Positions 1,850-18,811 of a DNA stretch of 21,234 nucleotides are shown one piece after another. The notes below the pieces were generated by a model. The model had not been told where the DNA came from and did not search any database. It saw nothing but the letters and a program-made list of their open reading frames with translations. Source of the stretch: a virus (taxonomy: Duplodnaviria > Heunggongvirae > Uroviricota > Caudoviricetes); IMG/VR virus record IMGVR_UViG_2698536401_000006. One strand, given 5' to 3'. A program made the translations under genes and the position numbers. Every line of letters starts with the position of its first letter. Position 1 is the first letter of the stretch.

Positions 1850-2120
1850 GATGTTACCGTAGTATGTGAGTATCCATCGAATAGACACCAAGCAAAAAAG
1901 CTCCCGAAGGAGCCTTCATTTTCACTTTTTTAAATCCAACGACAGACGGCTGGCATTTAAGTATTGTGAAATATTATCAAATGTAATCATCATTGATTTA
2001 CAAAAGATACATTTTGCCCCGAAAGGATTCATGTCAGAAACATCAAAAGATGATGTTCTATACTGGGAACCATGACAACACGGGCATCTAAAGTGAATAT
2101 GGTTTGTAATATTGTCTACC

Positions 2121-2333
2121 TCAAAGCGCCACTACATGAACAGCGGCAGGACCTTTAGGTCCGTTCTCAATACCAAATTCAACTTCCTGATTCTCAGTTA
2201 ATGTTTTGAAATCGTTGCTCTGAATTGCTGAGAAATGGACAAACACATCTTTGCTGCCATCTTTCGGCGTGATGAAACCAAAACCTTTTTCAGGGTTAAA
2301 CCATTTCACTAAACCAGTCATTTTGTTAGACAT
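2121..2333 (-). CDS. cspI: Cold shock protein CspI (CspA family)
   Basis: 70 aa with the signature [37 protein letters not shown] (RNP1/RNP2 motifs KGFGFI and VFVHF). Confidence 0.9.
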
Positions 2334-2695
2334 AATTATTACCTTTTGAAGAAATTAGCCCTTGGGCAGAATGGTCCGAAAAAAAATATCAGAGAGAAAA
2401 ACCAACAAGGAAATCTCAAGAGGTACAAATAATAAAATTATAACAATGACTGCTTCAGATAAATTTGTAACAAACCAGAACACCATTAACGCATGATTAA
2501 CCACCCATAGCAAGGATTACTTTTGTAAAGAAAAACACAGCAATGAAAGAATAGCTTTATTTATTAATAAAACGTGTCATTCTGATTAAGACCTTTTATC
2601 TTACCCTTAAGATTTCAGGAATTTTGGCTCATGGAAGAGTCCTTTTTATTTAAATTTTACATTCCGCGATGTAAATGTTCCGATTTAATATTACC

Positions 2696-3719
<1,024 letters not shown>

Positions 3720-3723
<4 letters not shown>

Positions 3724-4031
3724 AGATATTTATGATGAGGACGCTCGTGCTTATTGGCAGGATTTTCAATCTTAAAGGAGTACTGATGCTGCAGATAAGA
3801 CTCAACTTTTTCTGACAATTTTTCTGCTACTTCCAGGAAGACTTGCCGGACGCTCCTTCTGGCTGCTGCCTCATAAAACTCCAGCGCAGCTCCTTCAACA
3901 CGGTCCATGGCGACATCCAGGTCAAAAATTTCACCGTCAAAGCGTTCTTTGTCCTGTAAGGCTACAGTTACCGTAACTTTATTCTCAAAATTACGGACTC
4001 CTTTCACAACCAGTTCATAGTCTTGAGTCAT
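3720..4031 (-). CDS. ydfR: YdfR-like protein encoded between holin and endolysin
   Basis: 103 aa ORF translationally coupled (ATGA overlap) to the endolysin. Same position and length as K-12 ydfR as I recall it. Confidence 0.6.
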
Positions 4032-4035
4032 TGGA

Positions 4036-4251
4036 TTACTCTCCTCTCGCAGCCTTACGCCTGTCTTCTTTAATCTTGAAATAAAGATTTGTCAGATACG
4101 TCAGCAGGCCAAAAACCAGGCTACCCAGCACACCGATTGCAGCCCACTGTGACGGAGTTACTTTATCGAGTAACTGCAATGCCCAGAAACCAGCATTACC
4201 CGCCGATGTGCCATAGGCAACACCTGTTGTTAACTTATCCATTGATTTCAT
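4036..4251 (-). CDS. essQ: Holin (EssQ/EssD type), dual-start motif MKSM
   Basis: 71 aa from the ATG at 4251 ([14 protein letters not shown]...) with TM segments. SD GGTGAGGA upstream. Met1/Met4 dual start as in holin/antiholin pairs. The ORF track extends to 4326, but that upstream stretch lacks an RBS. Confidence 0.8.
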
Positions 4252-4470
4252 ATCCTCACCCCGATGTACACGGATGGTGCAATATGTTTGAAAAGATCGG
4301 AGTCTACGGGGTAGTTTTGACAGCACACGTTGTTCTCAACGGCGCTAAAAAAACATACACATTAAAAATGTGGGTAATTATTTTGAAAGAAAGTCATATA
4401 TAAAATAATAATACGAGAAATGTTTTCATATTTAGTGTACTGTATACGGCCATTTATACAGGAAAAGCCT

Positions 4471-4641
4471 ATGTCAGAACGTAAAAACTCAAAATCACGC
4501 CGTAATTATCTCGTTAAATGTTCCTGCCCAAACTGCACCCAAGAGTCAGAACACAGTTTTTCAAGAGTACAAAAAGGTGCCCTTTTGATCTGCCCTCATT
4601 GCAACAAAGTATTCCAGACAAATCTTAAAGCTGTAGCCTGA
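4471..4641 (+). CDS. Small zinc-ribbon protein (CxxC...CxxC), YnfU-like
   Basis: 56 aa from the ATG at 4471 (MSERKNSKSRRNYLVKCSCPNCTQESEHSFSRVQKGALLICPHCNKVF...). Two CxxC pairs; AGGAAAAG upstream. Followed by the hairpin at 4701-4726. Confidence 0.45.
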   Translation: MSERKNSKSRRNYLVKCSCPNCTQESEHSFSRVQKGALLICPHCNKVFQTNLKAVA

Positions 4642-4700
4642 TTGATTTTATTAGTAACAAGTATTTTTTATATTTTAATAATATATTTAAAGCAGATAAT

Positions 4701-4726
4701 AAAAAACCCGCCTGAGCGGGTTTGAG
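4701..4726 (-). terminator. Rho-independent terminator (hairpin CCCGC-ctga-GCGGG), strongest on the minus strand downstream of cspB
   Basis: The minus strand reads CCCGCTCAGGCGGG followed by TTTTTTATT. The plus strand has a poly-A before and a short T tract after, so it may act bidirectionally. Confidence 0.7.
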
Positions 4727-5004
4727 ATTGTGGTGCTTTTTGTGGGAGTCATCCACTTACGCACTTTGTTTTGCCATGCCAGCAGTTAGCTTCTGCTGTA
4801 AAACTATTCATGCAGCAAACCTGCACTTCACCACAATGGTTAGCATACTTTTCCTGATTAAGATTTTGCCAAATATGCTAGCCATTGTTTCATGTATTGG
4901 ACCTCCTTACTTTTTATTAAAGAGATCCAATATTCACTACTCTGTCCGTATCTCTACTCAGGCATCAGCCTTCTTCGTTATCGTATACAGACGAGCGATG
5001 AATT

Positions 5005-5220
5005 TTAATCAGTAATGATGACATTTGCTGCTGCAGGACCTTTAGCACCACTCTCTATAGAGAAGGTAACCTTTTGACCTTCAAATAAGGTTCGATAATT
5101 ATCATTCTGAATCGCAGAAAAATGCACAAACACATCTTTACTACCATCAACAGGAGAAATAAAGCCGAAACCTTTATCAGCGTTAAACCATTTTACTAAA
5201 CCAGTCATTTTATTTGACAT
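5005..5220 (-). CDS. cspB: Cold shock protein CspB
   Basis: 71 aa: [67 protein letters not shown]..., CspA-family signature. Confidence 0.9.
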
Positions 5221-5520
5221 TCTACATTCCTTAACTTGAGCCTTTCGGCATAAATGGTTTGCATAACAGAAACGACTTCGTACTTAATTGGAGAGACTCA
5301 AAGAAGGAATAAGTGAATAACACCTGAAATGAGAACTGCTTTAGTAAACTACTTCGTATATCGTCTGTTCTTCAAACCGACGCAATCATTAACGCATAGT
5401 TGAACATATGAAGCAATGTTTATTTTAGACATCCAGCCATCTTCAACCCCATCAAAAAACTATAGCTTTCTTCAGGAACGTGTGTATAGTGCGCCAAGTT
5501 ATCAGTATTAAGGAATTTTT

Positions 5521-5733
5521 TTGTCCCGTAAAATGACAGGAATTGTCAAAACCTTTGACGGCAAAAGCGGCAAGGGTCTTATCACCCCATCCGATGGTCG
5601 TATCGATGTCCAGCTTCATGTTTCAGCGCTCAATCTCCGCGATGCAGAAGAAATTACCACCGGATTACGCGTGGAATTTTGCCGGATAAATGGTCTGCGT
5701 GGCCCTTCAGCTGCCAATGTTTACCTTTCATGA
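5521..5733 (+). CDS. cspF: Cold shock protein homolog CspF/CspH type
   Basis: 70 aa: [26 protein letters not shown]...[21 protein letters not shown]. The track start at 5521 is a TTG codon; an in-frame ATG lies at 5533. Confidence 0.8.
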
Positions 5734-5787
5734 GCTATATTAAAGCTTTAATTTCAGGCCCCATCGGATCACACATGGAGAGTTTTT

Positions 5788-5877
5788 ATGAATAACCCCG
5801 TCTGTCTTGATGACTGGTTGATTGGCTTTAAAAGCTTATGCTGTACTTTGGCCGTAATAGCTCTGCTAATAATATAA
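5788..5877 (+). CDS. Possible 29 aa hydrophobic small peptide
   Basis: Manual translation gives [29 protein letters not shown], with GGAGAG 6 nt upstream of the ATG. Below the ORF-track size cutoff; speculative. Confidence 0.3.
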
Positions 5878-6025
5878 TAAGCAGACTCATTGTGTTTAGG
5901 GACATTGTACTGGAAGAAAACATTTTAAACATCAGGCAAATAACCAAGTCACCAGCTAAATAATAAGTTAACAGACATGAGTCCCGGGATGAGATTCAAC
6001 ATTACCATTGCCCCATTTAAAGCAC

Positions 6026-6059
6026 AAAACCCGCTCATCAGCGGGTTTTCTACTTTTTC
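6026..6059. terminator. Bidirectional hairpin terminator (CCCGCT-catc-AGCGGG), candidate tR' for the late promoter
   Basis: A GC-rich stem flanked by T-runs on both strands (plus TTTTCTACTTTTTC, minus TTTTGTGCTTT), lying about 40-60 nt downstream of the pR'-like promoter on the minus strand. Confidence 0.65.
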
Positions 6060-6094
6060 TTAACGTCGGGTATACAAAGCCCATCGTTGAAAAA

Positions 6095-6123
6095 ATTTTA
6101 TCCATATTTTTTGAAAAATGCAA
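6095..6123 (-). promoter_or_regulatory. pR'-like sigma-70 late promoter just downstream of Q (TTGCAT-N17-TAAAAT)
   Basis: The minus strand reads TTGCATTTTTCAAAAAATATGGATAAAAT: -35 at 6123-6118, a 17-nt spacer, and -10 at 6100-6095. Position relative to the Q gene is as in lambdoid phages. Confidence 0.6.
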
Positions 6124-6154
6124 ACATCATGTCGCCATCTTCAGCAAAAATCAT

Positions 6155-6907
6155 TTATCTCGTCACCTTCCTCAATTGCGCTTCCGCGTATGCTTCTTCC
6201 TGCCAGCACTTTGTTACCAGTTTACCAATGACGTCCGCATACCCCTTATACCACTGATAATCGGTCAGGTCTGGTACCAGCTTCTGGACATGACGTCGTG
6301 CCAGCGTGGTCGGTAAACGACTAAACCGGTTTCCATTACAACGCCCACAAATCTTATATACCGGTACGCCATGAAACCGGGTTCTTTTTTCATCCAGAAC
6401 AATCCCTTTACCCTTACACCCTCTGCACGCTGTGCTGGCTTCGCCCTTACCATGGCAATGCTGACATAGTTCCTTCACCCATTCTTCCTTGATTACAGAT
6501 TCCCCGCGTCTGTAGTGTTTCACCACTTCGCGCAATACATTATAAAATCCCGTACCTGAACAATGCTCACAGCGAGCCTTACTTGCCGCAGACCTGGAGT
6601 AATCAGCAAAGGCAAAACTCACGAGGTAAGGAATAATCTGTAACCGGATTTCTTCACTCAATTTGTTCAATGTCGGGTTATCCAGTGCCATCGCGTAATT
6701 TAGCAGGCCTTCAATCGCAAACTGAGGGTCCTGAACACCAACTTTTGCCAGAAATAAGGCCAACCCAAGTGGTGCTTTCGACTGCACCATCCCCTGCGCT
6801 GCCATTACATCCGTAATTGTTAAACAACCGGTGCCTGTCGCTGGAGCGTCATCGCTCAATTTTGGAGATTTTGGGGAGTAATATTTTGGTAAGGCTTCAA
6901 GGTTCAT
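6155..6907 (-). CDS. quuQ: Late-gene antiterminator Q homolog
   Basis: 250 aa from the ATG at 6907 (MNLEALPKYYSPKSPKLSDDAPATG...), with Cys-rich zinc-binding motifs (CEHCSGTG, CQHCHGKG, CRGCKGKG, CGRCNG). The ORF track begins 30 nt upstream at 6937. Confidence 0.85.
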   Translation of the reverse strand: MNLEALPKYYSPKSPKLSDDAPATGTGCLTITDVMAAQGMVQSKAPLGLALFLAKVGVQDPQFAIEGLLNYAMALDNPTLNKLSEEIRLQIIPYLVSFAFADYSRSAASKARCEHCSGTGFYNVLREVVKHYRRGESVIKEEWVKELCQHCHGKGEASTACRGCKGKGIVLDEKRTRFHGVPVYKICGRCNGNRFSRLPTTLARRHVQKLVPDLTDYQWYKGYADVIGKLVTKCWQEEAYAEAQLRKVTR

Positions 6908-6920
6908 GCTCGTTCTCCAC

Positions 6921-8009
6921 TTACGCCAGTACGCCAATTGTCAGCGCGCGATCGATAAAACGAAATATCAGCTCCAGTTGGGAGCCATACTTATCTTCAA
7001 ATGCCACTGTATCCGTATGCAGCTCGTTGTGATGCTTTCTGCACAAAGGCAACACAAAGAGATCATGTGCTTTTGTTCCCATTCCGCCCTGCCCGTGACC
7101 AATCAGATGATGCGGATCGTCGGCTGGCATACCGCAGCAAGCACACGGCTGTGTCTTAACCCAACGTGTGTATTTCTCCTTAACCCAGCGGCGACGTTTA
7201 GGCAGCTTCATGAAAGATTCCGGAGACTCTGGATCAACGGTGATGCTTACCACCGTCTTTTCCTGTGGTGATTTTTGTTGCTGGTGGGCGTAAGGCAACG
7301 GTGCAAGATTTTTTGTGCGTTGTTTCAATATGCTGGTGGCGGTCTGCTCTCCCGGTACGATGTCGCTTTCGCGGTACACCGAGCAGATTTTTTCCGCTGG
7401 TAATCCCAGCGAACGACGCGATACAGCCTCAGGTAGTGCATCCACCACCTGATTGCAGACCGCCCACCAGGATAATTCAGCCAAAGATAATTCCCGCTCC
7501 TGCGTACCGCTTATTGCGTGACGGATGACGTCAATCACCCATGCTGTCAGATTTTGTTGAGCAAGCAGCTCCAGTGATTCCGATGTCTGGTCACGCAGTT
7601 GGTTGTCGCAGTGCCAGCACAACACCATTGCGCCGGTACCATAACGGTGAATGACTGTTTCAGTGTGATGGTAATCGCCATTAGGCCACTGGCAGGATGT
7701 AACATGACGTAATAGCCAGTCGGACAATGCGCCAACGCCGCCAGCAGCACGAATCACCCGTTCGTTACTAAAAAACGGCAGCAATGTTTTGTCTTCCGCC
7801 AGCGGCTGGCGAACGGCAGGAACGACTCCGGATGGCAGATTACGCATGCTTTTTGGTTCCGGTTCCACCAGCACTCGAGGATTATGAAATATCTGTATGG
7901 ATTCACGGCCCGGCTTAAGGACCACCAGCCCAAGCTCAGGCACCAGAACAGGTCTAAGTAATACCCGCACGTTACCTCCAGATCCGTTGCTGGAAAGTGC
8001 GGGACGCAC
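6921..8009 (-). CDS. ydfU: YdfU-like protein (DUF968 family) with a C-terminal HNH-like Cys/His motif
   Basis: 362 aa ORF directly upstream of Q. C-terminal CACCGMPADDPHHLIGHG...CRKHHNELH. Start uncertain: the ORF overlaps the upstream rem-like ORF by 38 nt, and an internal Met (MRNLPSG) exists. Confidence 0.65.
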   Translation of the reverse strand: MRPALSSNGSGGNVRVLLRPVLVPELGLVVLKPGRESIQIFHNPRVLVEPEPKSMRNLPSGVVPAVRQPLAEDKTLLPFFSNERVIRAAGGVGALSDWLLRHVTSCQWPNGDYHHTETVIHRYGTGAMVLCWHCDNQLRDQTSESLELLAQQNLTAWVIDVIRHAISGTQERELSLAELSWWAVCNQVVDALPEAVSRRSLGLPAEKICSVYRESDIVPGEQTATSILKQRTKNLAPLPYAHQQQKSPQEKTVVSITVDPESPESFMKLPKRRRWVKEKYTRWVKTQPCACCGMPADDPHHLIGHGQGGMGTKAHDLFVLPLCRKHHNELHTDTVAFEDKYGSQLELIFRFIDRALTIGVLA

Positions 8010-8250
8010 GTGGTGGGCGTTCGGAATAAGGCAGCCTGACAGAGATTATCCAGTGCCGATAGTCGAGACTGAGAGCTTTCTTAACCTCGAACCCGCGCCT
8101 GCGGTAAGAATGAATCAGCCATTCGGCCTGTTCTGCAGTGCATGGAGGGTGCTGGAACCATTCAGACTTGAATGCGTGAGAATACCGCCCGTGCGTGCAG
8201 GCAAGAACGGGCGAATTATCAGAATTGTAATATTTTGCGTTGCGTGCCAT
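7972..8250 (-). CDS. rem: Rem-like small protein (assigned by position)
   Basis: 92 aa ORF between the ydfU-like gene and hokD, where rem lies in K-12 Qin. Named from position only. Confidence 0.5.
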   Translation of the reverse strand: MARNAKYYNSDNSPVLACTHGRYSHAFKSEWFQHPPCTAEQAEWLIHSYRRRGFEVKKALSLDYRHWIISVRLPYSERPPRASRTFQQRIWR

Positions 8251-8316
8251 CGGTTTTCTCCGGTGGCACGGTGTTACTCAGCGGGAGTTCAGCCCCGCGC
8301 AAGATTGTAGATGAGT

Positions 8317-8568
8317 TTATTCTCCTGAAAAAGCAGAAAAGCCAGCTTTTATTCCGATCTCTTTCAATGCCTGTAATGAAGTGACAAACTCACCTTCGCG
8401 CAAGATAAATCCGTCCGTGACCCGAGCATCCACAAAATTAATTAACGCAGCCCCATTCTTTCGCAAACACATAATGCGGTAATGACTAACAAGATTTCCA
8501 TTTTCAACGCACACAGCATAGAGGCCATCTTCACAAAAAATTTTACGCAGTTCTTCGATGTTCATCAT
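8317..8568 (-). CDS. Hypothetical 83 aa protein, no recognisable family
   Basis: ORF with SD GGAAGGA 6 nt upstream of ATGATG, downstream of the relBE-hokD terminator. I do not recognise it. Confidence 0.5.
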   Translation of the reverse strand: MMNIEELRKIFCEDGLYAVCVENGNLVSHYRIMCLRKNGAALINFVDARVTDGFILREGEFVTSLQALKEIGIKAGFSAFSGE

Positions 8569-8685
8569 CAGAATCCTTCCGGATAATTAGCTCTCCCCTT
8601 TAAGGGACCATCCCTCTTATCCCTGCGCGCTACTTAAGTATTTTTGATTCTATTCCGGCACCGTCCAGAACTTCAAACGCGTTGA

Positions 8686-8714
8686 AAATAAAAACAAAAA
8701 CCCGCCGAAGCGGG
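8686..8714 (-). terminator. Rho-independent terminator of the relBE-hokD operon
   Basis: The minus strand reads CCCGCTTCGGCGGG followed by TTTTTGTTTTTATTT, about 70 nt downstream of the hokD stop. Confidence 0.75.
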
Positions 8715-8784
8715 TTAAGTGCGGGTGCGTTGAGGATGCCTGCCACATCAGAGGTGGCGAGGGATTTCTCCCCCGCCGGGTCTC

Positions 8785-8940
8785 TTACTCCTCAGGTTCG
8801 TAAGCTGTGAAGACAGCGACCTCCGTCTGGCCGGTTCGGATTCGTACCTCGCAGAGGTCTTTCCTCGTTACCAGTGCCGTCACTATGACGGTTAAACAGA
8901 TGACGATCAGGGCGATTAACATCGCCTTTTGCTGCTTCAT
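8785..8940 (-). CDS. hokD: Hok-family membrane toxin HokD (RelF)
   Basis: Manual translation gives MKQQKAMLIALIVICLTVIVTALVTRKDLCEVRIRTGQTEVAVFTAYEPEE (51 aa), matching remembered HokD. SD AGGAGAAG upstream. Absent from the ORF track because of its size. Confidence 0.85.
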   Translation of the reverse strand: MKQQKAMLIALIVICLTVIVTALVTRKDLCEVRIRTGQTEVAVFTAYEPEE

Positions 8941-9011
8941 AGCCTGCTTCTCCTGTCAACGCAAAGCAGAAGTGTCACCTTCGGTGCGAAACAGAGATGT
9001 CATGCTTTGGT

Positions 9012-9299
9012 TCAGAGAATGCGTTTGACCGCCTCGCTATATACTTCCGAGCGTTCTCTTTTCCCAACAGAAATCACGAAAACGACAACTTTCTCGTCTA
9101 TAACCTGGTATACAAGGCGATAGCCTGAAGACCGGAGCTTAATCTTGTAACAATCAGGCATACCACGGAGCTTGTTTGCTTCAATCCGGGGTGACTCAAG
9201 TACTTCAACCAGCTTCTTTTTCAACTGTTCACGTACCGTCGAGCCCAGCTTTCGCCATTCCTTTAGTGCCCGCTCGTCAAAATCCAGAAAATACGCCAT
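9012..9299 (-). CDS. relE: RelE mRNA interferase toxin
   Basis: 95 aa: MAYFLDFDERALKEWRKLGSTVREQLKKKLVEVLESPRIEANKLRGMPDCYKIKLRSSGYRLVYQVIDEKVVVFVISVGKRERSEVY..., matching remembered RelE. Start overlaps the relB stop (TGATG). Confidence 0.9.
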   Translation of the reverse strand: MAYFLDFDERALKEWRKLGSTVREQLKKKLVEVLESPRIEANKLRGMPDCYKIKLRSSGYRLVYQVIDEKVVVFVISVGKRERSEVYSEAVKRIL

Positions 9300-9538
9300 C
9301 AGAGTTCATCCAGCGTCACACGTACTGGCTTAGGATTACGAAGCCGTTCTTTCACTATCTCCACAAGTTCAGCATCTTCATCACTCAGGAGTGTCTGTTT
9401 GAACGGCAAGCGTTCATTGTCAGCGATATACTCGAGCATGAGACGAAGCGCTTCAGAAGGAGTTACACCCATTTTTTCAAGCGCGGCGTAAGAACGCGCT
9501 TTAAGTTCATCGTCAATACGCAGGTTAATGCTACCCAT
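9299..9538 (-). CDS. relB: RelB antitoxin
   Basis: 79 aa: MGSINLRIDDELKARSYAALEKMGVTPSEALRLMLEYIADNERLPFKQTLLSDEDAELVEIVKERLRNPKPVRVTLDEL. SD GAGG upstream. Confidence 0.9.
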   Translation of the reverse strand: MGSINLRIDDELKARSYAALEKMGVTPSEALRLMLEYIADNERLPFKQTLLSDEDAELVEIVKERLRNPKPVRVTLDEL

Positions 9539-9544
9539 GTCTTA

Positions 9545-9590
9545 CACCTCTTGTAATTACAAATGTCATTACAAGTATCGCACTACAACA
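9545..9590 (-). promoter_or_regulatory. relBE promoter/operator (relO) with TTGTAAT/ATTACAA hexad repeats
   Basis: TTGTAATTACAAATGTCATTACAAG sits immediately upstream of the relB start, with palindromic TTGTAATTACAA. Confidence 0.7.
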
Positions 9591-9868
9591 TGCTTAGGGC
9601 AAGTCACGAAGGAAGTCAGAAAGTAGTCGTAAGAACGGTGATCACTGTCCGCTTTGTGCCAGGAGCAGCCATTGCTAAGTCCATCCTGTATTGTGCAGGT
9701 CAGCTCGTTTTTAAAGAGTCCGGCCATCATCTTACTGGTACAGACACCATATACTTTGTGACGGTCAGGCTACATATGCACAACTCAACTTATTCATCTA
9801 TTTTTTGCTTTAGCATGTCAGTGTTGCTTTCTCGTCGGCGGGTGAGCGGTGACCTGACCTGTCGATAA
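9563..9868 (+). CDS. Doubtful ORF, YdfV-like by position and length
   Basis: 101 aa ORF in the relB-flxA gap with no RBS and no recognisable features. It overlaps the relO promoter region. Listed only because K-12 annotates a 101 aa ydfV here. Confidence 0.2.
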   Translation: MSLQVSHYNMLRASHEGSQKVVVRTVITVRFVPGAAIAKSILYCAGQLVFKESGHHLTGTDTIYFVTVRLHMHNSTYSSIFCFSMSVLLSRRRVSGDLTCR

Positions 9869-10020
9869 AGGAACGTAACACGTTTTATGCAACACCCGCA
9901 TGCGGCAGAAAATTATTGCCGAACGTTTACCCCTGTCAACAAGCTTTACTTTCTGAGGCGCGCCAGCCCGCGAGGAAAACAATCTGAACATCAAACAATT
10001 AATGACACAAGAAATACGAT

Positions 10021-10047
10021 TAAAGATTTTTTTGTGCATGCCGATAG
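10021..10047 (+). promoter_or_regulatory. Sigma-28 (FliA) class 3 flagellar promoter upstream of flxA
   Basis: TAAAGATT-N11-GCCGATAG compared with the consensus TAAAGTTT-N11-GCCGATAA; about 24 nt upstream of the flxA start. Confidence 0.75.
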
Positions 10048-10070
10048 TGCTTTTTTAAAAGGAGAAATCT

Positions 10071-10403
10071 ATGTCTGTCACAATTCAGGGAAATACCTCA
10101 ACCGTTATTTCAAACAACTCCGCCCCGGAAGGAACATCAGAAATAGCCAAAATCACAAGACAAATTCAGGTGCTGACTGAAAAGCTTGGGAAAATCTCAT
10201 CGGAAGAGGGGATGACGACACAGCAGAAAAAAGAAATGGCTGCATTGGTACAGAAGCAAATTGAAAGCCTCTGGGCTCAACTGGAGCAGTTGTTAAGGCA
10301 GCAGGCAGAGAAAAAGAATGAAGACGCGACAGTTCAGCCTGATAAAAAAGAAGAGAAAAAAGACGATACAAATACCGCTGGCACCATTGATATTTACGTC
10401 TAA
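10071..10403 (+). CDS. flxA: FlxA (FliA-regulated protein)
   Basis: 110 aa: MSVTIQGNTSTVISNNSAPEGTSEIAKITRQIQVLTEKLGKISSEEGMTTQQKKEMAALVQKQIESLWAQL... RBS AAGGAGA. Confidence 0.85.
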   Translation: MSVTIQGNTSTVISNNSAPEGTSEIAKITRQIQVLTEKLGKISSEEGMTTQQKKEMAALVQKQIESLWAQLEQLLRQQAEKKNEDATVQPDKKEEKKDDTNTAGTIDIYV

Positions 10404-10417
10404 GTGACAGCCGTATT

Positions 10418-10441
10418 GTGGCCCTCATCGGGCCACTTTTC
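10418..10441 (+). terminator. Rho-independent terminator of flxA
   Basis: Hairpin GTGGCCC-tcatc-GGGCCAC followed by TTTTCG. Confidence 0.6.
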
Positions 10442-10839
10442 GCCATCAGCCTTTTCTTTAAAGACATATTATCTTTGTATCATTTCTGATAGTTAACATT
10501 ACAAGATATAAGTAATGGACGCACTCCCAATTAGTCTATTTAAATCGCCACGAGTTTAACTGACAACCCATGATCAATTATGAATTGCAACTATTTCTGT
10601 AGTCACTTTTGTGGGGACAGTCCACAAAACTGCCAACTTCCGCTTCTTGCTCTTAGCGGACATTAGCATAGGCTATTTACCATAACGCCTCATTACGCGC
10701 ACCGCCCAGACTGACTCAGCGCGTTTCTGGCATATCCCCGGTAAAACAAGTAACAAACCACCCGAAAATGAACACCAGAAACGCGACTTAAGAATCTACC
10801 CTATGAATGGATATGCACTCAACCGAATCGATCTTGGTT

Positions 10840-12153
10840 TCAATCTTTTTTATCGGGATCAGGCTTCTTTTTAGGTAACTTCGGGGGCTTAACTTGCTGA
10901 TGACTTTGCGTTCGGCGCGTAAGCCAGGGATGGTCAGCTTTAGGTTTAACATAGTATTTTGAGCGTAAATCAATACGGGCATTATCCACTCGTTCATGGA
11001 CACTCTTTTCATCATCCAGTGGTATAGGCTCCGGGCCATCAACATACTTTTCCCAGCCCAGCGCTTTCCCGTCATACAGAACGTTAATTTCACCGTCAAA
11101 GTTCTCGCATACAGTAACAACCGAATGCCTAAGTCGATATCCCCGGCCCTCACTGCGTACCTGAAACGCACTGCTTTTGTACTGGAAAGTGAGATTTTTA
11201 GACAGAACGCGCTTCGCCTGTAGGCTGAAGATATAACCCAGTTCCTCTTCAGAATGGTGCACATCAAGATGAGCATTATCAGTAGTACGAGGCGACGTAG
11301 CGAACCGGTTGTTATAGGCTTCAATAAAGGTCGGCAACCATGCATTTGCTGTTTCAATATCACTGATATTCTGAAGCCGCATTTCTTTGACCAGCCTGTC
11401 CTGTAGTGTCTGATTGGCGCGCTCTACCCGCCCTTTTGCCTGCGGGCTGTTGGCATGGATTGGCTCGATGCCCAGTGTCTTTATCGCACGAGTGAACTGG
11501 GTCAGCTCACCTTCCCGCTCTGGGTTATTTACCCTGAATATACTGTGTCTATCAGAGTAGAGAGCGAGCGGTACGCCATGATCATTAAGGTAACCCCGGA
11601 GGGTTTCCATGTAAGCCCGGGTTGTTTCAGCAGGCACAAAACGCAACGCCATCAACGCACTGGTGGCATCATCAATGAAAACGATCAGTGTACATCTGGG
11701 GCCTCGATTTTCAAACCAGTCATGAGGTGAGCCATCAATCTGGATCAGTTCACCGTAAGATGGTCGTCGCATGCGGCGTTGATATATACGGGCAATTTTA
11801 CGACGGCGTTCACGCCATAACCCCTCTTCTATCATCCACTTTCTGAGAGTTTCAACGGATAAAGATAAACCGTGTATCTCGCGCAATTTTTCGCACGCAA
11901 ACGTAGGTCCAAAATCAGCGTAACGGCCTTTGAGGAGTGAAATTACTGTTGCTCTGAATTCAGTAGAAAAGGAATTATTAGGACGCTTTCCACGTCGGTG
12001 GGAAACCAGACCAGAAGGCCCTTCATTTCTATACCGTTGCACCAGACGTTTAACCTGCCGAATAGAAATGCCAATGCGTGCCGCAGCTTGTTCCTGAATA
12101 ATCTGAAGTCGGTGGAGTTCCTTATGACTCATCGTAACAGTCTCTTTGATCAT
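10840..12153 (-). CDS. DDE transposase with N-terminal HTH and rve (integrase-core) domain, IS481-like in architecture
   Basis: 437 aa with an N-terminal HTH region (ISIRQVKRLVQRY) and D/D/E-type core segments (IQIDGSPHDWF, LIVFIDDATS, LYSDRHSIF, ERANQTLQD). IS family is not established and IS ends were not identified. Confidence 0.75.
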   Translation of the reverse strand: MIKETVTMSHKELHRLQIIQEQAAARIGISIRQVKRLVQRYRNEGPSGLVSHRRGKRPNNSFSTEFRATVISLLKGRYADFGPTFACEKLREIHGLSLSVETLRKWMIEEGLWRERRRKIARIYQRRMRRPSYGELIQIDGSPHDWFENRGPRCTLIVFIDDATSALMALRFVPAETTRAYMETLRGYLNDHGVPLALYSDRHSIFRVNNPEREGELTQFTRAIKTLGIEPIHANSPQAKGRVERANQTLQDRLVKEMRLQNISDIETANAWLPTFIEAYNNRFATSPRTTDNAHLDVHHSEEELGYIFSLQAKRVLSKNLTFQYKSSAFQVRSEGRGYRLRHSVVTVCENFDGEINVLYDGKALGWEKYVDGPEPIPLDDEKSVHERVDNARIDLRSKYYVKPKADHPWLTRRTQSHQQVKPPKLPKKKPDPDKKD

Positions 12154-12370
12154 GAAAAATCCCCCAGAGAATTGTCTGGGGACATTTTAGAATGGTTCAA
12201 AGGGGACATTACAGCTTGGTGTTAACAATAGCCTGCTTCTCCGTGCCTTTCGGCACGTAAGAGGCTAACCTACATGTGTCTAGCATGAAATTGGCCTCAG
12301 ATTAATGTTAAGCGTCTTGCAGGACGCGTAATGTTAACTGGGGCTTTTCTCTATCTGCCGTTGGTGTCCA

Positions 12371-12402
12371 TGCCCGAGGCAGATAGCCTCAAGCACCCGC
12401 CG
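12371..12402 (+). repeat. Left copy of a 32 bp imperfect direct repeat flanking the low-GC cassette
   Basis: TGCCCGAGGCAGATAGCCTCAAGCACCCGCCG; 27 of 32 nt match the copy at 14390-14421, with an identical 14-nt core CCTCAAGCACCCGC. Confidence 0.6.
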
Positions 12403-12636
12403 TGATTCTACAAAAACATTACCCACCTTTCCAGCAATTCACAACAACTCCATGCAAATAGTAAGTAGAATAATAAGTTATTAGTATTAGCAATTTACTT
12501 AGTTTCTAATTTGTGCCAATGATTTTCATTTTTGCATGAAAAATACCTTAACATTTTATATTTACTTACTATTTGTAAGCCCCATCAGTTCTTTCTGATG
12601 GCGGCTGGTATTTCAGTTCCAGATATAGTATATGCT

Positions 12637-13665
12637 TTACGCCTTAATAGGGTTAATCACATTTCCGCTATCCGTACCATAGTATTTTTTTGTAGTCATG
12701 CCTTGTTTATAATAATCATTTAACAGTTTGAGAAAGTTTCTTCCTTGCCTCTCATCTTCTATGACTAATTTACCATGCTCATTGGTCTTAAACTCTTCGT
12801 TCTGAAACATTTTTAGCACATCATTCATAGCTTGAACATCATTCTTTTCCAGAACCGTATGGTTACCTTTCTCAGCGATATGAGTGAGAATTTTTCTCAG
12901 TGATGGCTTATGAAGAATAGCTTGTTCAATAACATCTAAACCTTCAATAAGATCAAGTTCTTTAATTGTATTTAATGTTTTTTGTGCAGCTTCTGTAAAC
13001 TCAACCTCCAAGCCTACAATAGCCTCAAAACTTTTCTTATGAAATACATAAAATTGATCTTTTATATAAATACAATCGATTTTGTCATCAAAATTGACTG
13101 CGCTGCCATCAAATGATCTTAACTCTTTATCTGTTTTATCAAACAAAGCGAATACGCGCTGAGTCATATTTTGTGGTTCATTTGTTGTGACTTTCCCCCT
13201 GCTGATTTTTCGGAAAGAATAAGTGACGTCAGCCCCCTTTTGGACTTTAATACAATAGGCCCACAAATCATTCTGAACCTCAGCCAGAGAGGTAAGTACA
13301 ACTGGTTTATCATTCTTTATATCGTTATTAATAACTTTTGAAAACGATATCGCGTTATTCATAGCATAGGCATAAATCTTATTATCAATATCATCATCAA
13401 TAACAGTATACTTTTTCATCACAATATCATCTTTCGAAGCATGAGAAATAATCTGGTTTGATAAAGTATACTTAAAAAATTTAGCAATATCTGGAGCGAT
13501 TGGAGCTTTAATGATTTTAAAATCGAATTTATCAACAACTCTTGCGGTTCTACTCATACCCGCTTTAAGATGTCTAGTAATGAAATACAACGATATTTTC
13601 GCCGCATCATCATCCTTAAGTTGCTCAGCATACTCTAATAATTCTTCAAGCTTTAACATTTTCAT
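12637..13665 (-). CDS. Hypothetical 342 aa soluble protein, second gene of the low-GC cassette (candidate defence effector/sensor)
   Basis: AT-rich ORF with Lys/Asn/Ile-biased codon usage unlike the surrounding prophage. Translationally coupled (ATGA overlap) to the upstream membrane protein gene. No motif I can name. Confidence 0.75.
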   Translation of the reverse strand: MKMLKLEELLEYAEQLKDDDAAKISLYFITRHLKAGMSRTARVVDKFDFKIIKAPIAPDIAKFFKYTLSNQIISHASKDDIVMKKYTVIDDDIDNKIYAYAMNNAISFSKVINNDIKNDKPVVLTSLAEVQNDLWAYCIKVQKGADVTYSFRKISRGKVTTNEPQNMTQRVFALFDKTDKELRSFDGSAVNFDDKIDCIYIKDQFYVFHKKSFEAIVGLEVEFTEAAQKTLNTIKELDLIEGLDVIEQAILHKPSLRKILTHIAEKGNHTVLEKNDVQAMNDVLKMFQNEEFKTNEHGKLVIEDERQGRNFLKLLNDYYKQGMTTKKYYGTDSGNVINPIKA

Positions 13666-14276
13666 TCCTTATGGGATTCAGCATAAAAAAGTTTTGGGCC
13701 CACGTCCTCAACATCAAGAAGATCATCTTCCTCCAAATACTTTGATTTAGTCAAAACCATACCAGTGCGTTTTTTGTCGCTTTCTAAATCCAAATATGTA
13801 ACTTGATATAAAGTATAATTAATACTTATTGTAGGATTTATAAGTATCATGCTTGAATTAATATATATTAAAGCCGTTACCGTTAACAATATTGCTATAG
13901 GTATAACATTAGTTAAAGTGGATAGATCCTGAAATACAAACGGAATTATATATGTAAAAAGATAGCTTATTGATTCATTGTTTTTATTTTCAATATCTAT
14001 AACTCTTACAGTTCTACCACTAGTGGCGCATCGACGTTTTATATTTTTTAAAAAAATTGTTAATCCTACAATACCAAATAATGATAATACACCAATGACA
14101 CTGACCGCGCCAAAGTATTTAAAGAAAATAGTTAATGATTCAACACTTATACCTTTCCAATTTAAATAGCTTCTATAAGTATACAATTGCACAAAACACA
14201 TGATAAAGAATAGGGGAAGGTATGACACTATAAATAGCGAAACTCTAGCACCTAAATGTAGTTTATTTACTCTCAT
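13662..14276 (-). CDS. 4-TM membrane protein, first gene of the low-GC cassette
   Basis: 204 aa with four hydrophobic segments (about 12-31, 48-74, 103-115, 123-146) and an acidic C-terminal tail. AT-rich. Its stop overlaps the start of the downstream gene. Confidence 0.7.
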   Translation of the reverse strand: MRVNKLHLGARVSLFIVSYLPLFFIMCFVQLYTYRSYLNWKGISVESLTIFFKYFGAVSVIGVLSLFGIVGLTIFLKNIKRRCATSGRTVRVIDIENKNNESISYLFTYIIPFVFQDLSTLTNVIPIAILLTVTALIYINSSMILINPTISINYTLYQVTYLDLESDKKRTGMVLTKSKYLEEDDLLDVEDVGPKLFYAESHKE

Positions 14277-14389
14277 AACTACCCCACAGCCTACACGTCT
14301 AGTATTTTATGTTATTTCGAATAATTATGCATCAGATTACCATCCTACAATTGTGCATAAAACGAGCATTTTGCTGATTTTTCTGCGGA

Positions 14390-14421
14390 TGCCTGAGACA
14401 GACAACCTCAAGCACCCGCAG
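14390..14421 (+). repeat. Right copy of the 32 bp imperfect direct repeat flanking the low-GC cassette
   Basis: TGCCTGAGACAGACAACCTCAAGCACCCGCAG; pairs with 12371-12402. Confidence 0.6.
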
Positions 14422-14484
14422 CAATTTTACTTAACTCCCGCTACCTCGCCAATATGAAATCAATAAGAAAGGTGCTCCATAAAA

Positions 14485-15171
14485 TCACTCCTTCTCTTCT
14501 TTATCGTAGTGGAGTTGACCAATTTTGATAAGAGGGCGTCCCTGAGATTTGCGGTGTAGATTGGTATCGCGCAGAGAATACACACAGCCACAATATTCCT
14601 GCTGATAGAATTTTTCGCGCTTGCTGATTTCAATCATGCGGGACGAGCCGCCCTGCTTGCGCCAGTTATAATCCCAGTACACCATGCCCGGATAATGCGC
14701 GACGGCTCGCCGCCCACAGTCGTTAACCTGCTGCATATTTTTCCAGCGTGAAATGCCCAGTGAACTGCTGATCACACTGAAACCATTTTCAGCAGCGTAC
14801 AGCGCTGTCCGCTCAAAACGCATGTCAAAACACATGGTACAACGGATCCCCCTCTCGGGCTCCCATTCCATTCCTTTGGCACGTTCAAACCAGTTGTCTG
14901 TGTCGTAATCAGCATCAATAAATGGCACGCCGTGTTGTTCAGCAAAGCGAATATTCTCATCCTTACGAATTAAATACTCTTTCTGAGGATGAATGTTCGG
15001 GTTGTAGAAAAAGATGGTATAGTCGATTCCCGAGGCCTGAAGCGCCTCCATCACTTCACCGGAACATGGAGCACAGCAAGAGTGCAGTAGTAGTTTGTTT
15101 GCCCCGTTTGGGAGCTCCAATTTAGGCCGTTTGAAATCAGCAATAGTCATAAATATTTTTATTGGGGTCAT
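14485..15171 (-). CDS. QueH-like protein (DUF208, epoxyqueuosine reductase family)
   Basis: 228 aa containing [14 protein letters not shown] near the N-terminus, the Cys motif I associate with QueH/DUF208, plus further conserved Cys (CTMC, CGC). Start could be the internal Met at 15150. Confidence 0.65.
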
Positions 15172-15347
15172 GAAAATAGCACAGAGTGTAGCATCAGGGC
15201 TATCGGGAATAGATGTCTAAATCTGGTAATATCTGCTTTTGACGCAAAGCAGACAACCACGCTAGCTCAATCCTGTGCCGTGAAAATGTCAATTCACATC
15301 TGAACTAATGCTCTTTAATCTAGTTACGTCTATAAATAACGAAAATT

Positions 15348-15746
15348 TCACTGATAAAATGCCAGTATGCGCTGCATAACTTCGCTCTTCCGGCACTCAC
15401 AGCAAATTATGTTTTGGTGCCTGTCATAACGACGTATTTCTCCGTCAGGTAATGACCAGATAAGGTCCGGATCAACCACAGATGTTTTCTTCACCTTTGC
15501 CCTCGAGAGTTTTTTGCGGGCGTTTTGCCAGTCCTTACGAGCCTGTTCAGACGGGAATAACCCGTAGCCAGAGTTATATACATCACCACTGGCAACCAGC
15601 TCTCTGGCGAGAACGCTCATCAGATATCTTGTCGCACCTGTCTTGGCTTCCAGTTGCCGTAACGTCTCGCGCCCACTCCGGCGTACTAGCTCAACAACCT
15701 GCCCCTTGATTTTTTCCCGCTCTTCTTGTGTAAAAACTTTTGCCAC
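15348..15746 (-). CDS. Hypothetical 132 aa early-region protein
   Basis: ORF immediately downstream of the O-like gene; no recognisable motifs (no Walker A). Function unknown. Confidence 0.5.
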   Translation of the reverse strand: MAKVFTQEEREKIKGQVVELVRRSGRETLRQLEAKTGATRYLMSVLARELVASGDVYNSGYGLFPSEQARKDWQNARKKLSRAKVKKTSVVDPDLIWSLPDGEIRRYDRHQNIICCECRKSEVMQRILAFYQ

Positions 15747-15786
15747 AAGTCCCCCTTAAAATTACCTCATGACCTGAAATCAAAAC

Positions 15787-16806
15787 TTATCCTCTGAAAC
15801 CAGGCGGAATTTCTGTATCCGGTTCAGAAATATGATTAACACAACGCTGTACAGGTGAACGCCCCAGGCGGATGACCAGTTCGTCCCATTTTTCGCGGAG
15901 CTTTGACGGGCTCATGATGTTTTTTACCCAGAATGGATCCCGCTGTACCCGACCAAACATTTCACAAATTTGTCTGTGGCTTCTGCCATCCAGCATCCGC
16001 ATTGTGCGCACATCATTGGCCCAGACAGTCCAGTTAGGCTCTTTTGGTCGCATGATCTCGCCATCATCACTGGCGGCCTGTTCGTAGAGACCCACGATCC
16101 GCCCCCATATCCACTGCGCACACGCCAGATCCTCCTGGCTACCCCACTGGCGTTTTTTCGCACTAAACACAACTGCGCCAGGGTGCCGGATTAAAAAATC
16201 CTGTTCAGCCGTCTGCGGGTCCGGTTGCGAAGCTTCCGGACGAAAAGTGTTTTTATTCTCTGTAGTAATCTCTGTTGTATTCTCTGTAGGATCATCGGGC
16301 CATTTTGACCCGATGACATTGGGTCGTTTTGAACCAATGGAGCGTTTCATTTTGACCTCTTCCATCGTGTCATTTTGACCTGATGGAGCGGCGCATTTTG
16401 AACCGATGGATTCGCTCAATTTGCCATCATCTAAAAGCTCGCTCCCATAGTTAATCGTGTAGAAATTGGTCATATCGCGCTTTGATTTATTGAGCTTTTC
16501 ACAACGCAAAAGCCCCAGCGTTTTCAGACTTGCAAACGCGCGCTTTAACGTTGACTCTGACCAGAATGGGAACTGTTCCAGCCATTGTTCCGTTGTGTTG
16601 TAAATCCAGCGAACACCATCACATTCCATGCCGGAATTGGTATCTCTCAACCAGTAATGCAACTGCTGCAACACAATGGCTTCATTTAAGCCAATCTTCA
16701 TCGCAAGCTGTGTGTTTATAACCAGTGGGCGTTCAGCAAAAAGAAGGCTCATAATTCCATCCAGCTTTTTGTTGGTATTGCTGTCGATACGCAAGTTTGA
16801 AAGCAA
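15787..16806 (-). CDS. Lambda O-like replication initiator with the origin embedded in its coding sequence
   Basis: 339 aa with an N-terminal winged-helix-like region. Five iterons in the middle of the gene give the peptide repeats SIGSK/VIGSK. Lies downstream of cro-like dicC. Start may be the internal Met at 16752. Confidence 0.7.
   Translation of the reverse strand: MLSNLRIDSNTNKKLDGIMSLLFAERPLVINTQLAMKIGLNEAIVLQQLHYWLRDTNSGMECDGVRWIYNTTEQWLEQFPFWSESTLKRAFASLKTLGLLRCEKLNKSKRDMTNFYTINYGSELLDDGKLSESIGSKCAAPSGQNDTMEEVKMKRSIGSKRPNVIGSKWPDDPTENTTEITTENKNTFRPEASQPDPQTAEQDFLIRHPGAVVFSAKKRQWGSQEDLACAQWIWGRIVGLYEQAASDDGEIMRPKEPNWTVWANDVRTMRMLDGRSHRQICEMFGRVQRDPFWVKNIMSPSKLREKWDELVIRLGRSPVQRCVNHISEPDTEIPPGFRG
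16295..16410. repeat. Replication origin iterons: five copies of about CATTTTGA(C/A)C(C/T)GATGG at 23-24 bp spacing
   Basis: Copies start near 16301, 16325, 16348, 16371 and 16394; the first is part of the palindrome TCATCGGG..CCCGATGA. An adjacent AT-rich tract with ACAGAGAATA repeats (16230-16290) lies on the downstream side, as in lambda ori. Confidence 0.75.
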
Positions 16807-17254
16807 TTGCTTTTTCTATAAGTTCGTCAGTTTCACGATCCACTACGGCAGGATCAGCAAAAAGCAGTCCGGACTCCACCACATCGCCATATTCTTTGTT
16901 TAACCCGGCGATCATGTACGTGATGCTTTTTCCGTCACTAATTTCACGATGCAACCTGAAATCATTAATCCGGATAGCCTCCATAATTGCAGGCACTAGC
17001 GCCGTGAACTTTTCACGCTTATCCCTGGTGTCGATAGCCTTCCAGCGTTCGAATATCTTCACTCGATTAACGCCAAGCGCTCGCTGATCAACCGCGCCAC
17101 CTTCATCTGTGACACGCTGAACATCGATGTTCGGGCGCTCTTTCAAAGCCCAGAATGCTTCAGTGATTAATATCGTCGCCTGCTCCTGTGTCATTCCTGG
17201 TCGACATATCCAGGCATCCAGAGCCTCACGAGCCTGTTCAGGAGTGATTTTCAT
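16733..17254 (-). CDS. Hypothetical 173 aa early protein adjacent to dicC (cII/YdaT position)
   Basis: ORF overlapping the dicC stop. Possible weak resemblance to YdaT-type proteins, but this is from uncertain memory only. Confidence 0.55.
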   Translation of the reverse strand: MKITPEQAREALDAWICRPGMTQEQATILITEAFWALKERPNIDVQRVTDEGGAVDQRALGVNRVKIFERWKAIDTRDKREKFTALVPAIMEAIRINDFRLHREISDGKSITYMIAGLNKEYGDVVESGLLFADPAVVDRETDELIEKAIAFKLAYRQQYQQKAGWNYEPSFC

Positions 17255-18753: not shown

Positions 18754-18811
18754 TTTCTGGTGACGTTTGGCGGTATCAGTTTTACTCCGTGACTGCTCTG
18801 CCGCCGTTTTT
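18754..18811 (+). ncRNA. dicF: DicF small regulatory RNA (ftsZ-targeting sRNA) with intrinsic terminator
   Basis: TTTCTGGTGACGTTTGGCGGTATCAGTTTTACTCCGTGACTGCTCTGCCGCCGTTTTT matches remembered DicF, including the terminal hairpin and U-run. Located between ydfB/C and dicB. Confidence 0.8.

Follow-up and report, generated by a model that had tools for sequence, protein, structure and literature searches.

The window analyzed here is a 21,234-nucleotide (nt) stretch of virus DNA (IMG/VR record IMGVR_UViG_2698536401_000006) which holds a Qin-like lambdoid prophage of E. coli. This prophage very probably carries, as a moron, a complete kwaA-kwaB operon of the anti-phage defence system Kiwa. The kwaAB cassette lies in minus-strand orientation. 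The gene kwaA (13662 to 14276, minus strand) encodes an integral membrane protein of 204 amino acids that combines four helices with a C-terminal beta domain. It is followed by kwaB (12637 to 13659 from its likely start, minus strand), which encodes a DUF4868/KwaB protein. An earlier inspection of the letters alone, hereafter the sequence-only reading, had described two translationally coupled minus-strand genes of 204 and 342 amino acids. It had pointed out their resemblance to Kiwa, i.e. a KwaA with four transmembrane helices next to a KwaB with DUF4868, and had left the choice between a Kiwa variant and an undescribed system. The two genes are indeed present and intact, and PADLOC, Pfam, the predicted folds and the conserved gene pair all agree on Kiwa. 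Concerning the choice, a diverged subtype of Kiwa was found which is already contained in PADLOC, and the idea of an undescribed system did not stand.

Profile searches with Pfam DUF4868 and with defence-system databases, which the sequence-only reading had proposed as a check, were positive for KwaB in Pfam and PADLOC and for KwaA in PADLOC. KwaB matched the PADLOC profile PDLC00223 with an expectation value (E) of 2.8e-159 over profile positions 1-338 of 339. KwaA matched PDLC00212 with E 1.3e-101, covering residues 1-203 of 204 and profile positions 2-204 of 205. Weaker matches were obtained with 7 further KwaB profiles and 11 further KwaA profiles of this database. The Pfam family PF16162 (DUF4868/KwaB) matched KwaB residues 132-319 with 60.7 bits (gathering cut-off 26.3). 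The local Pfam scan of KwaA gave a sub-threshold match to LrgA only; an identical KwaA protein (P0121) carries a precomputed PF28043 assignment, and gene tables of relatives name PF28043 KwaA. The RefSeq protein WP_000915483.1, which is identical to KwaB of the window, is annotated as "Kiwa anti-phage protein KwaB-like domain-containing protein". Both proteins are members of the Kiwa families. The PADLOC subfamily PDLC00212/PDLC00223 is the window's own subfamily, from which the two proteins do not differ; peculiar to the E. coli copy is only its genomic site, the hok leader of a Qin-like prophage.

The same assignment was obtained at the level of structure. Searches of the PDB with the single sequences returned only KwaB chains for KwaB (9mrx, 9mtn, 9nyu and 9o0i) and only KwaA chains for KwaA (9mrg, 9mrr, 9mrx and 9o0i), each at E of about 1e-6. 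Subfamily profiles reached 1.4e-9 for KwaB and 2.1e-7 for KwaA, and only Kiwa chains contained an independently significant stretch; three designed helical-repeat chains which appeared in the KwaB profile search had no individually significant stretch. AlphaFold models were calculated from 48 homologues for KwaB and from 44 homologues for KwaA, with predicted local distance difference test scores (pLDDT) of 84 and 82, respectively. Foldseek comparison of the KwaB model with the PDB yielded KwaB entries only (9mrx_D: E 2.2e-14, template modelling (TM) scores 0.63/0.67, 16% identity, whole length). The KwaA model yielded KwaA entries only (9mrx_A: E 4e-10, TM scores 0.78/0.81, 22% identity). For both models the next PDB matches had E above 0.1. 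Structure prediction of the single proteins, as suggested in the sequence-only reading, thus led exclusively to the solved KwaA and KwaB.

The hydropathy profile of KwaA exhibited strong segments at residues 12-30, 58-76 and 121-139 and a weaker one at about 101-118, and the AlphaFold model contains helices at residues 8-33, 45-86, 103-113 and 121-140. Four transmembrane helices and an acidic tail had been predicted beforehand. The helices hold (four in the model; three strong and one weaker by hydropathy), and so does the acidic composition with 11 D/E versus 7 K/R among the last 40 residues. However, these residues are modelled as a beta-strand domain and not as a simple tail. Published KwaA possesses four transmembrane helices and a C-terminal beta-barrel which touches KwaB (PMC11785009). 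The KwaA model with its four helices and C-terminal beta domain agrees with this description.

The reading frame of kwaB offers two start codons. The first ATG, at 13665, results in a protein of 342 amino acids and forms an ATGA with the stop codon of kwaA, an overlap of 4 nt. The second ATG, at 13659, shows better Shine-Dalgarno spacing (AAGGA, 6 nt, ATG); it is the start chosen in RefSeq and in almost all homologues and gives 340 amino acids and a 2-nt gap after kwaA. Judged from these signals, a KwaB of 340 amino acids is more likely than one of 342. Whichever start holds, kwaA and kwaB are tightly coupled. Compared with the profiles both open reading frames (ORFs) are full length and free of frameshifts.

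The gene order kwaA-kwaB on the same strand is also found in relatives in other contexts. Close relatives with 60-87% identity occur in Klebsiella, Aeromonas, Vibrio, Shewanella, Edwardsiella, Photobacterium, Pseudoalteromonas and other genera, and in every readable relative contig, including relatives of 80-84% identity, kwaB comes directly after kwaA. The Klebsiella pair is flanked by MazEF and DarTG, and a variant with 80% identity in other E. coli is located near hlyE beside a large integrase-like gene. Homology among the contexts of the relatives ends at the two genes; neither conserved non-coding ends nor hok-like repeats were found in Klebsiella and in the other E. coli island. The closest relative outside E. 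coli, with 84% KwaB identity, belongs to Klebsiella sp. CP141644 (retrieved stretch 2108-9023). There, kwaAB is part of a small defence island with a MazEF pair on one side and DarT, DarG and a UvrD-like helicase on the other.

A close known system with solved structures is the Kiwa of E. coli O55:H7 RM12579 (KwaA P0DW45, KwaB P0DW46; PDB 9mrx, 9mrg, 9mrr, 9mtn and 9nyu), described by Doron et al. 2018 as cited in PMC11785009. Both systems share the operon order kwaA-kwaB, the four membrane helices with a beta domain and DUF4868 in KwaB; both folds superpose over the whole length, and both systems reside on mobile DNA. In contrast to the O55:H7 protein, KwaB of the window is longer by about 25 residues. 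DNA contacts of O55 KwaB involve R142, R167, K187, R233, N134 and D169 (PMC11785009). In a HMMER alignment, D169 corresponds to D193 of the window protein, which is invariant in the subfamily, and K187 corresponds to K211; the proteins are too diverged to place R142, R233 and N134.

The sequence-only reading had noticed a strikingly AT-rich block of 2 kb with a Lys/Asn/Ile bias. This observation was confirmed by calculation. The guanine-plus-cytosine (GC) content is 0.319 at positions 12412-14388 versus 0.449 in the remaining window. GC content at third codon positions amounts to 0.22 for kwaA and 0.29 for kwaB, and to 0.44-0.52 for neighbouring genes. Lys, Asn and Ile together account for 21.6% of KwaA and 26.9% of KwaB; their share is 15-18% in five of the six neighbours compared and 23.6% in flxA. 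By its composition the kwaAB block is clearly foreign and AT-rich. The occurrence of its closest relatives in Klebsiella, Aeromonas, Vibrio and Shewanella fits the low GC content of the cassette.

An exact copy of the cassette is present in 156 of 5,426 complete E. coli genomes. It is always chromosomal and always shows the same two junctions, and no megablast match was obtained in INPHARED (phages) or PLSDB (plasmids). Strain A1 (NZ_CP029328) shows 100% identity over window positions 12200-14500. For this record RefSeq lists the genes in the order ynfO, cspI, lysis genes, cspB and cspF, ydfT (Q), ydfU, rem, hokD, relE, relB, ydfV, flxA, ydfW, ISNCY transposase, KwaB-like protein, QueH, DUF977, O-like protein, YdaT, Cro/CI, dicB and integrase. 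The gene kwaA is not annotated in NZ_CP029328 (retrieved stretch 13460-14285) and appears as "hypothetical protein" in other carriers.

The operon might descend from Kiwa and yet be inert, carried silently or in decay by a cryptic prophage. In favour of this, Qin-like prophages are defective and changeable, the entire region has been lost by deletion in K-12, the hok gene next door is no longer intact, and some carriers contain IS150 and IS3 insertions inside the matched stretch of 2.3 kb. On the other hand, the two ORFs are undamaged, a good promoter-like site lies upstream of them, and the cassette is at least 99.8% identical in 30 of 30 genomes among the matches listed for the 156 carriers, which come from many hosts. 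Residues invariant in the subfamily are also retained, although this follows from the construction of the alignments. We consider an inert operon unlikely.

The mechanism proposed for the window operon was transferred by homology from the published work; for the subtype itself, what is shown are the two folds, the architecture and a single aspartate among the DNA contacts (D193). In published Kiwa, KwaB dimers are anchored at the inner membrane by KwaA tetramers, and the two proteins form a fence-like supercomplex, an assembly known only for the O55 proteins (PMC11785009). Kiwa is activated by membrane disturbance during phage adsorption and injection or during conjugation. KwaB then binds the entering DNA non-specifically via DUF4868 and does not cut it, replication forks stall and late transcription fails (PMC11785009). 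The DNA mimic Gam of phage lambda binds and inhibits KwaB, an effect that is weaker when RecBCD is present (PMC11785009). By analogy, KwaA of the window would act as a membrane sensor which tethers KwaB dimers. A perturbation of the membrane by phage attachment, DNA injection or conjugation would let KwaB engage the incoming DNA via DUF4868. KwaB on the DNA would stall replication and hence block late transcription, and DNA mimics such as lambda Gam could inhibit it. Carried on a prophage, Kiwa would protect the lysogen, and hence the prophage, from superinfection.

The gene pair had been said to have the layout typical of abortive-infection or defence systems. Read as an abortive-infection module, it would have the membrane protein as its effector, which would damage the membrane and so kill the cell. 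Many membrane proteins paired with a soluble partner act in this way, and the cassette is embedded in a hok locus, whose product is a membrane-damaging toxin. This framing does not fit published Kiwa, where KwaA is the sensor and KwaB binds DNA and blocks replication without nuclease activity; a killing role of KwaA was not reported (PMC11785009). Since both folds of the window proteins match the published KwaA and KwaB, killing by KwaA is quite improbable, and the defence is better described as a putative block of phage replication by a Kiwa operon.

The insertion of the operon could be defined from its ends. Imperfect direct repeats had been noted on both sides of the cassette, and 27 of 32 positions are indeed identical between 12371-12402 and 14390-14421. 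The repeats extend to 42 nt with 81% identity (12370-12411 and 14389-14430). A degenerate 31-mer of the repeat matched only these two sites, and the number expected from 100 shuffles was 0. The left repeat (12370 to 12411, minus strand) reads GTAGAATCACGGCGGGTGCTTGAGGCTATCTGCCTCGGGCAT on the minus, i.e. coding, strand and corresponds to the beginning of the resident hok mRNA leader; before it stands TAGAAT CACG, a -10-like variant that belongs to the cassette. A match to the Rfam family RF01794 begins at its GGGTGCTTGAGG (12398). This hok/sok regulatory region (12227 to 12398, minus strand) scored 104 bits (gathering cut-off 59) over model positions 1-157 and includes mok and the Sok target. 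It ends precisely at the hok start codon, at the point where an ISNCY element interrupts the locus.

The right repeat (14389 to 14430, minus strand) consists of the native -10 region of the hok promoter (14430 to 14420) and, within the inserted segment, of the core together with a diverged version of the arm and loop of the first hok mRNA hairpin (14419 to 14389). This copy terminates at ...CTCAGGCAT, 112 nt upstream of kwaA. On its own it gave no match to RF01794 even at E up to 1; by direct alignment it is a 42-nt fragment of the same hok leader. Compared with a hok/sok locus, the left repeat together with the next 170 nt represents the full hok leader/Sok match, whereas the right copy has no mok, Sok target or hok behind it, and the left leader is severed from the hokD ORF. 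The start of the RF01794 match inside the left repeat identifies the repeats, at the level of sequence, as a piece of the hok locus in which the promoter -10 region is followed by the arm and loop of the first hairpin in the hok mRNA. They are duplicated parts of the hok/sok leader and not generic cassette ends. No such repeats surround the relatives, and thus they are not part of the mobile Kiwa cassette as such.

The comparison of the same prophage position in related genomes, also proposed by the sequence-only reading, revealed an empty site between QueH and hokD. A synthetic empty-site query, composed of a single repeat placed between QueH and the hok leader, matched NCTC9022 in one piece with 98.5% identity. 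This query was covered to at least 80% in 797 genomes, in which QueH is directly followed by hokD. In the alignment the empty site corresponds to the left copy of the window up to the core CCTCAAGCACCCGC and to the right copy after the core. Thus, the extra DNA is the segment 12401-14419, and the two repeats are hybrid. This inserted segment of 2,019 bp, which is absent from the empty QueH-hokD arrangement, comprises kwaAB, non-coding flanks and the equivalent of one repeat. The window contains no tRNA or tmRNA gene as an integration target.

In minus-strand order the locus begins with the resident promoter, followed by the core shared by both junctions (14 nt), the diverged leader stub (...CTCAGGCAT), a spacer of 112 nt, kwaA and kwaB. 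On the 3' side of kwaB, 225 nt of AT-rich DNA end in TGGAAA-17-TAGAAT, after which the core recurs, followed by the resident hok leader. Two promoter-like sequences were detected. The first one, TTGGCG-17-TAAAAT (14424 to 14452, minus strand), was found in a consensus scan as a sigma-70-like site, and the same sequence precedes intact hok leaders at empty sites. It is probably the resident hok promoter, which now reads toward kwaA-kwaB, and transcription of kwaAB from this captured promoter is plausible. The second one, TGGAAA-17-TAGAAT (12405 to 12433, minus strand), is a pattern match at the 3' end of the inserted segment and faces the remnant of the hok leader. A scan for intrinsic terminators 3' of kwaB found none; a 7-bp hairpin at 12582-12601 has no T tract.

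Uninterrupted leaders in 28 prophage contigs of IMG/VR contain alleles which vary at the same hairpin positions, CTATCTG[C/T]CTC[A/G][A/G]GCAT. The stub variant TTGTCTGTCTCAGGCAT occurs in IMG/VR contigs solely together with Kiwa and is absent from a collection with one genome per species. The promoter variant TAGAATCACG was found solely 3' of Kiwa. The cassette lies within the 5' end of the hok/sok locus. From this junction pattern we infer that the resident leader and a molecule with a related leader beside kwaAB recombined by one crossover in the core. As a result, the resident hok promoter now faces kwaAB, and the cassette-borne promoter-like copy faces the remainder of hok.

The arrangement resembles the morons and defence hotspots of temperate phages: a foreign, AT-rich and self-contained operon lies amid conserved genes, and occupied as well as empty alleles exist. 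In contrast to usual prophage morons, the junctions lie in duplicated RNA-leader sequence and not in an intergenic slot bounded by promoter and terminator. Furthermore, unlike prophage hotspots, the exact junction held a single cargo, Kiwa, in the material examined. Between the stop codon of QueH and the hok promoter, several genomes, among them NZ_CP014111 (FDAARGOS_144; retrieved stretch about 3240-3615), carry an insert other than Kiwa, about 376 bp long and without an annotated gene. The distance from this insert to the Kiwa junction is some tens of bases. QueH (epoxyqueuosine reductase; 14485-15171, minus strand) belongs to the early region of the prophage between the replication genes and hok, and is kept in Qin-like prophages with or without Kiwa.

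The DDE transposase which the sequence-only reading had placed next to the cassette is encoded at 10840-12153 on the minus strand. Its 437 amino acids matched NF033594 with 456 bits, and in some genomes the Prokaryotic Genome Annotation Pipeline (PGAP) assigns it to the IS1202-like ISEsa1 family. It belongs to an ISNCY (IS1202-like) element of 3,274 bp (8954 to 12227) with the passengers relE, relB, ydfV and flxA, which is not part of Kiwa. The terminal inverted repeats of 28 nt (8954-8981 and 12200-12227) agree at 21 of 28 positions, with a score of 28 versus 20 for the best of 500 shuffles. Outside them lies the target duplication, two perfect 15-bp copies of ATAGCCTGCTTCTCC (8939-8953 and 12228-12242); it extends from the ribosome-binding site of hokD through the AT of its start codon. 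In many genomes with an uninterrupted hokD site a two-piece match of 112 bp (54 + 73 - 15) was obtained, a length as expected for one copy of the 15-bp duplication. The element parts the hok/sok regulatory half (12227-12398) from the hokD ORF (about 8785-8940).

The repeats around Kiwa could also be read as a target-site duplication of this transposase, with Kiwa as transposon cargo. The transposase gene lies just 250 bp away, and its element makes a long duplication of 15 bp. However, the element is bounded by its own inverted repeats and ends at 12227 with its own perfect duplication, 174 bp before the cassette. The Kiwa segment (12401-14419) is located outside the inverted repeats, and the transposase consequently does not account for its presence. 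Identity between the two Kiwa repeats is just 81%, whereas it is 97-98.5% between the flanks and empty sites. The cassette itself has no inverted repeats at its ends, and relatives elsewhere lack repeats like those around it. Transposition of Kiwa as cargo of this element is therefore very improbable, and a crossover in the hok leader is the preferred route of entry.

A tentative and rather doubtful extension is that the start of the hok leader, with its core GCGGGTGCTTGAGG and hairpin, might serve as a recombination site at which cassettes gain access to Qin-like prophages. One crossover would suffice to integrate a 2-kb circle or fragment with a related leader, and it would hand the resident toxin promoter to the defence operon and supply a second promoter for hok. 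Together with the ISNCY element 170 nt further on, the hokD leader would then be a small insertion hotspot. The diverged subtype might also sense or block other phages than the studied type.

Several results weigh against a working Kiwa operon that entered by this route. Both proteins missed the NCBIfam equivalog cut-offs (KwaA: NF041622, 81.1 versus 100 bits; KwaB: NF041623, 58.3 versus 200 bits), and identity to the O55:H7 proteins is just 16-24%. R167 of O55 KwaB aligns with N191 of the window protein, which means that the DNA contacts are not all kept. The promoter hits are consensus matches, and their total in the region is no higher than chance. A donor hok locus with the cassette-type promoter and the stub contiguous was not found; the two halves occur in the 156 carriers only, and there always apart. 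The empty site could also stem from a deletion between the repeats, and the junctions alone do not prove the direction. Finally, no experiment on this Kiwa subtype was found. Protection against phages or conjugation was shown for six other Kiwa operons (O55:H7, ECOR8, ECOR12, ECOR49, D9 and Ralstonia; PMC11785009), and the text of that paper gives no sequences by which the subtype could be matched to them. The literature search also returned no paper which links Kiwa to Qin.

The NCBIfam models strictly demand the same function and centre on the O55:H7 type; the shortfall marks a diverged subtype and not exclusion from the Kiwa family. An undescribed two-gene defence system which merely mimics the Kiwa layout would agree with these missed cut-offs, with a RefSeq KwaA that is "hypothetical protein" or uncalled and with the weak single-sequence similarity to solved Kiwa, but it has next to no probability and was rejected, since the full-length subtype-specific PADLOC matches of both proteins, the Pfam match of KwaB above its cut-off, PF28043 on an identical KwaA and the whole-length fold matches all point to Kiwa.

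The subtype is represented in PADLOC and labelled in RefSeq and is thus an already known system. Kiwa ranks with the most abundant of the known systems, with a reported occurrence in 1,713 E. coli genomes (PMC11785009). For defence biology the finding is ordinary in this respect, although the defence operon was recognisable from the raw sequence in the first reading. Because the NCBIfam scores are below the cut-off, PGAP labels KwaB only as "KwaB-like domain-containing" and KwaA as "hypothetical protein" or leaves it uncalled. Consequently, annotation-based surveys undercount this subtype, and counts which require both annotated genes will miss it. With 16-24% identity to the solved proteins it would be useful as a second reference for structure and phenotype. 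The points to retain are this diverged subtype, the KwaA annotation gap, the insertion in the hok leader with its putative promoter capture, and the ISNCY element.

The window also documents the origin of the relBE, hokD and flxA arrangement of K-12, i.e. the insertion of the ISNCY element into hokD followed by a deletion of 5.95 kb. K-12 MG1655 matches window positions 6666-11024 and resumes at 16975, so that 5,950 bp (11025-16974) are lacking. What is lost comprises the larger part of the transposase together with the hok leader, Kiwa, QueH, DUF977, the O-like gene and a portion of ydaT. In K-12, ydfW and ydfX are remnants which flank the deletion. The statement in the sequence-only reading that the cassette lies where K-12 Qin carries intK/ydfX was correct, as MG1655 passes straight from ydfW to ydfX. 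The ISNCY element sits in hokD behind the ribosome-binding site and ahead of the start codon, which would explain why hokD (relF) of K-12 lies behind relBE without a sok/mok leader. Further Rfam matches above the gathering cut-off were two cspA thermoregulators (2094-2479 and 4989-5381, upstream of cspI and cspB, respectively) and the small RNA DicF (18755-18806), as expected for Qin.

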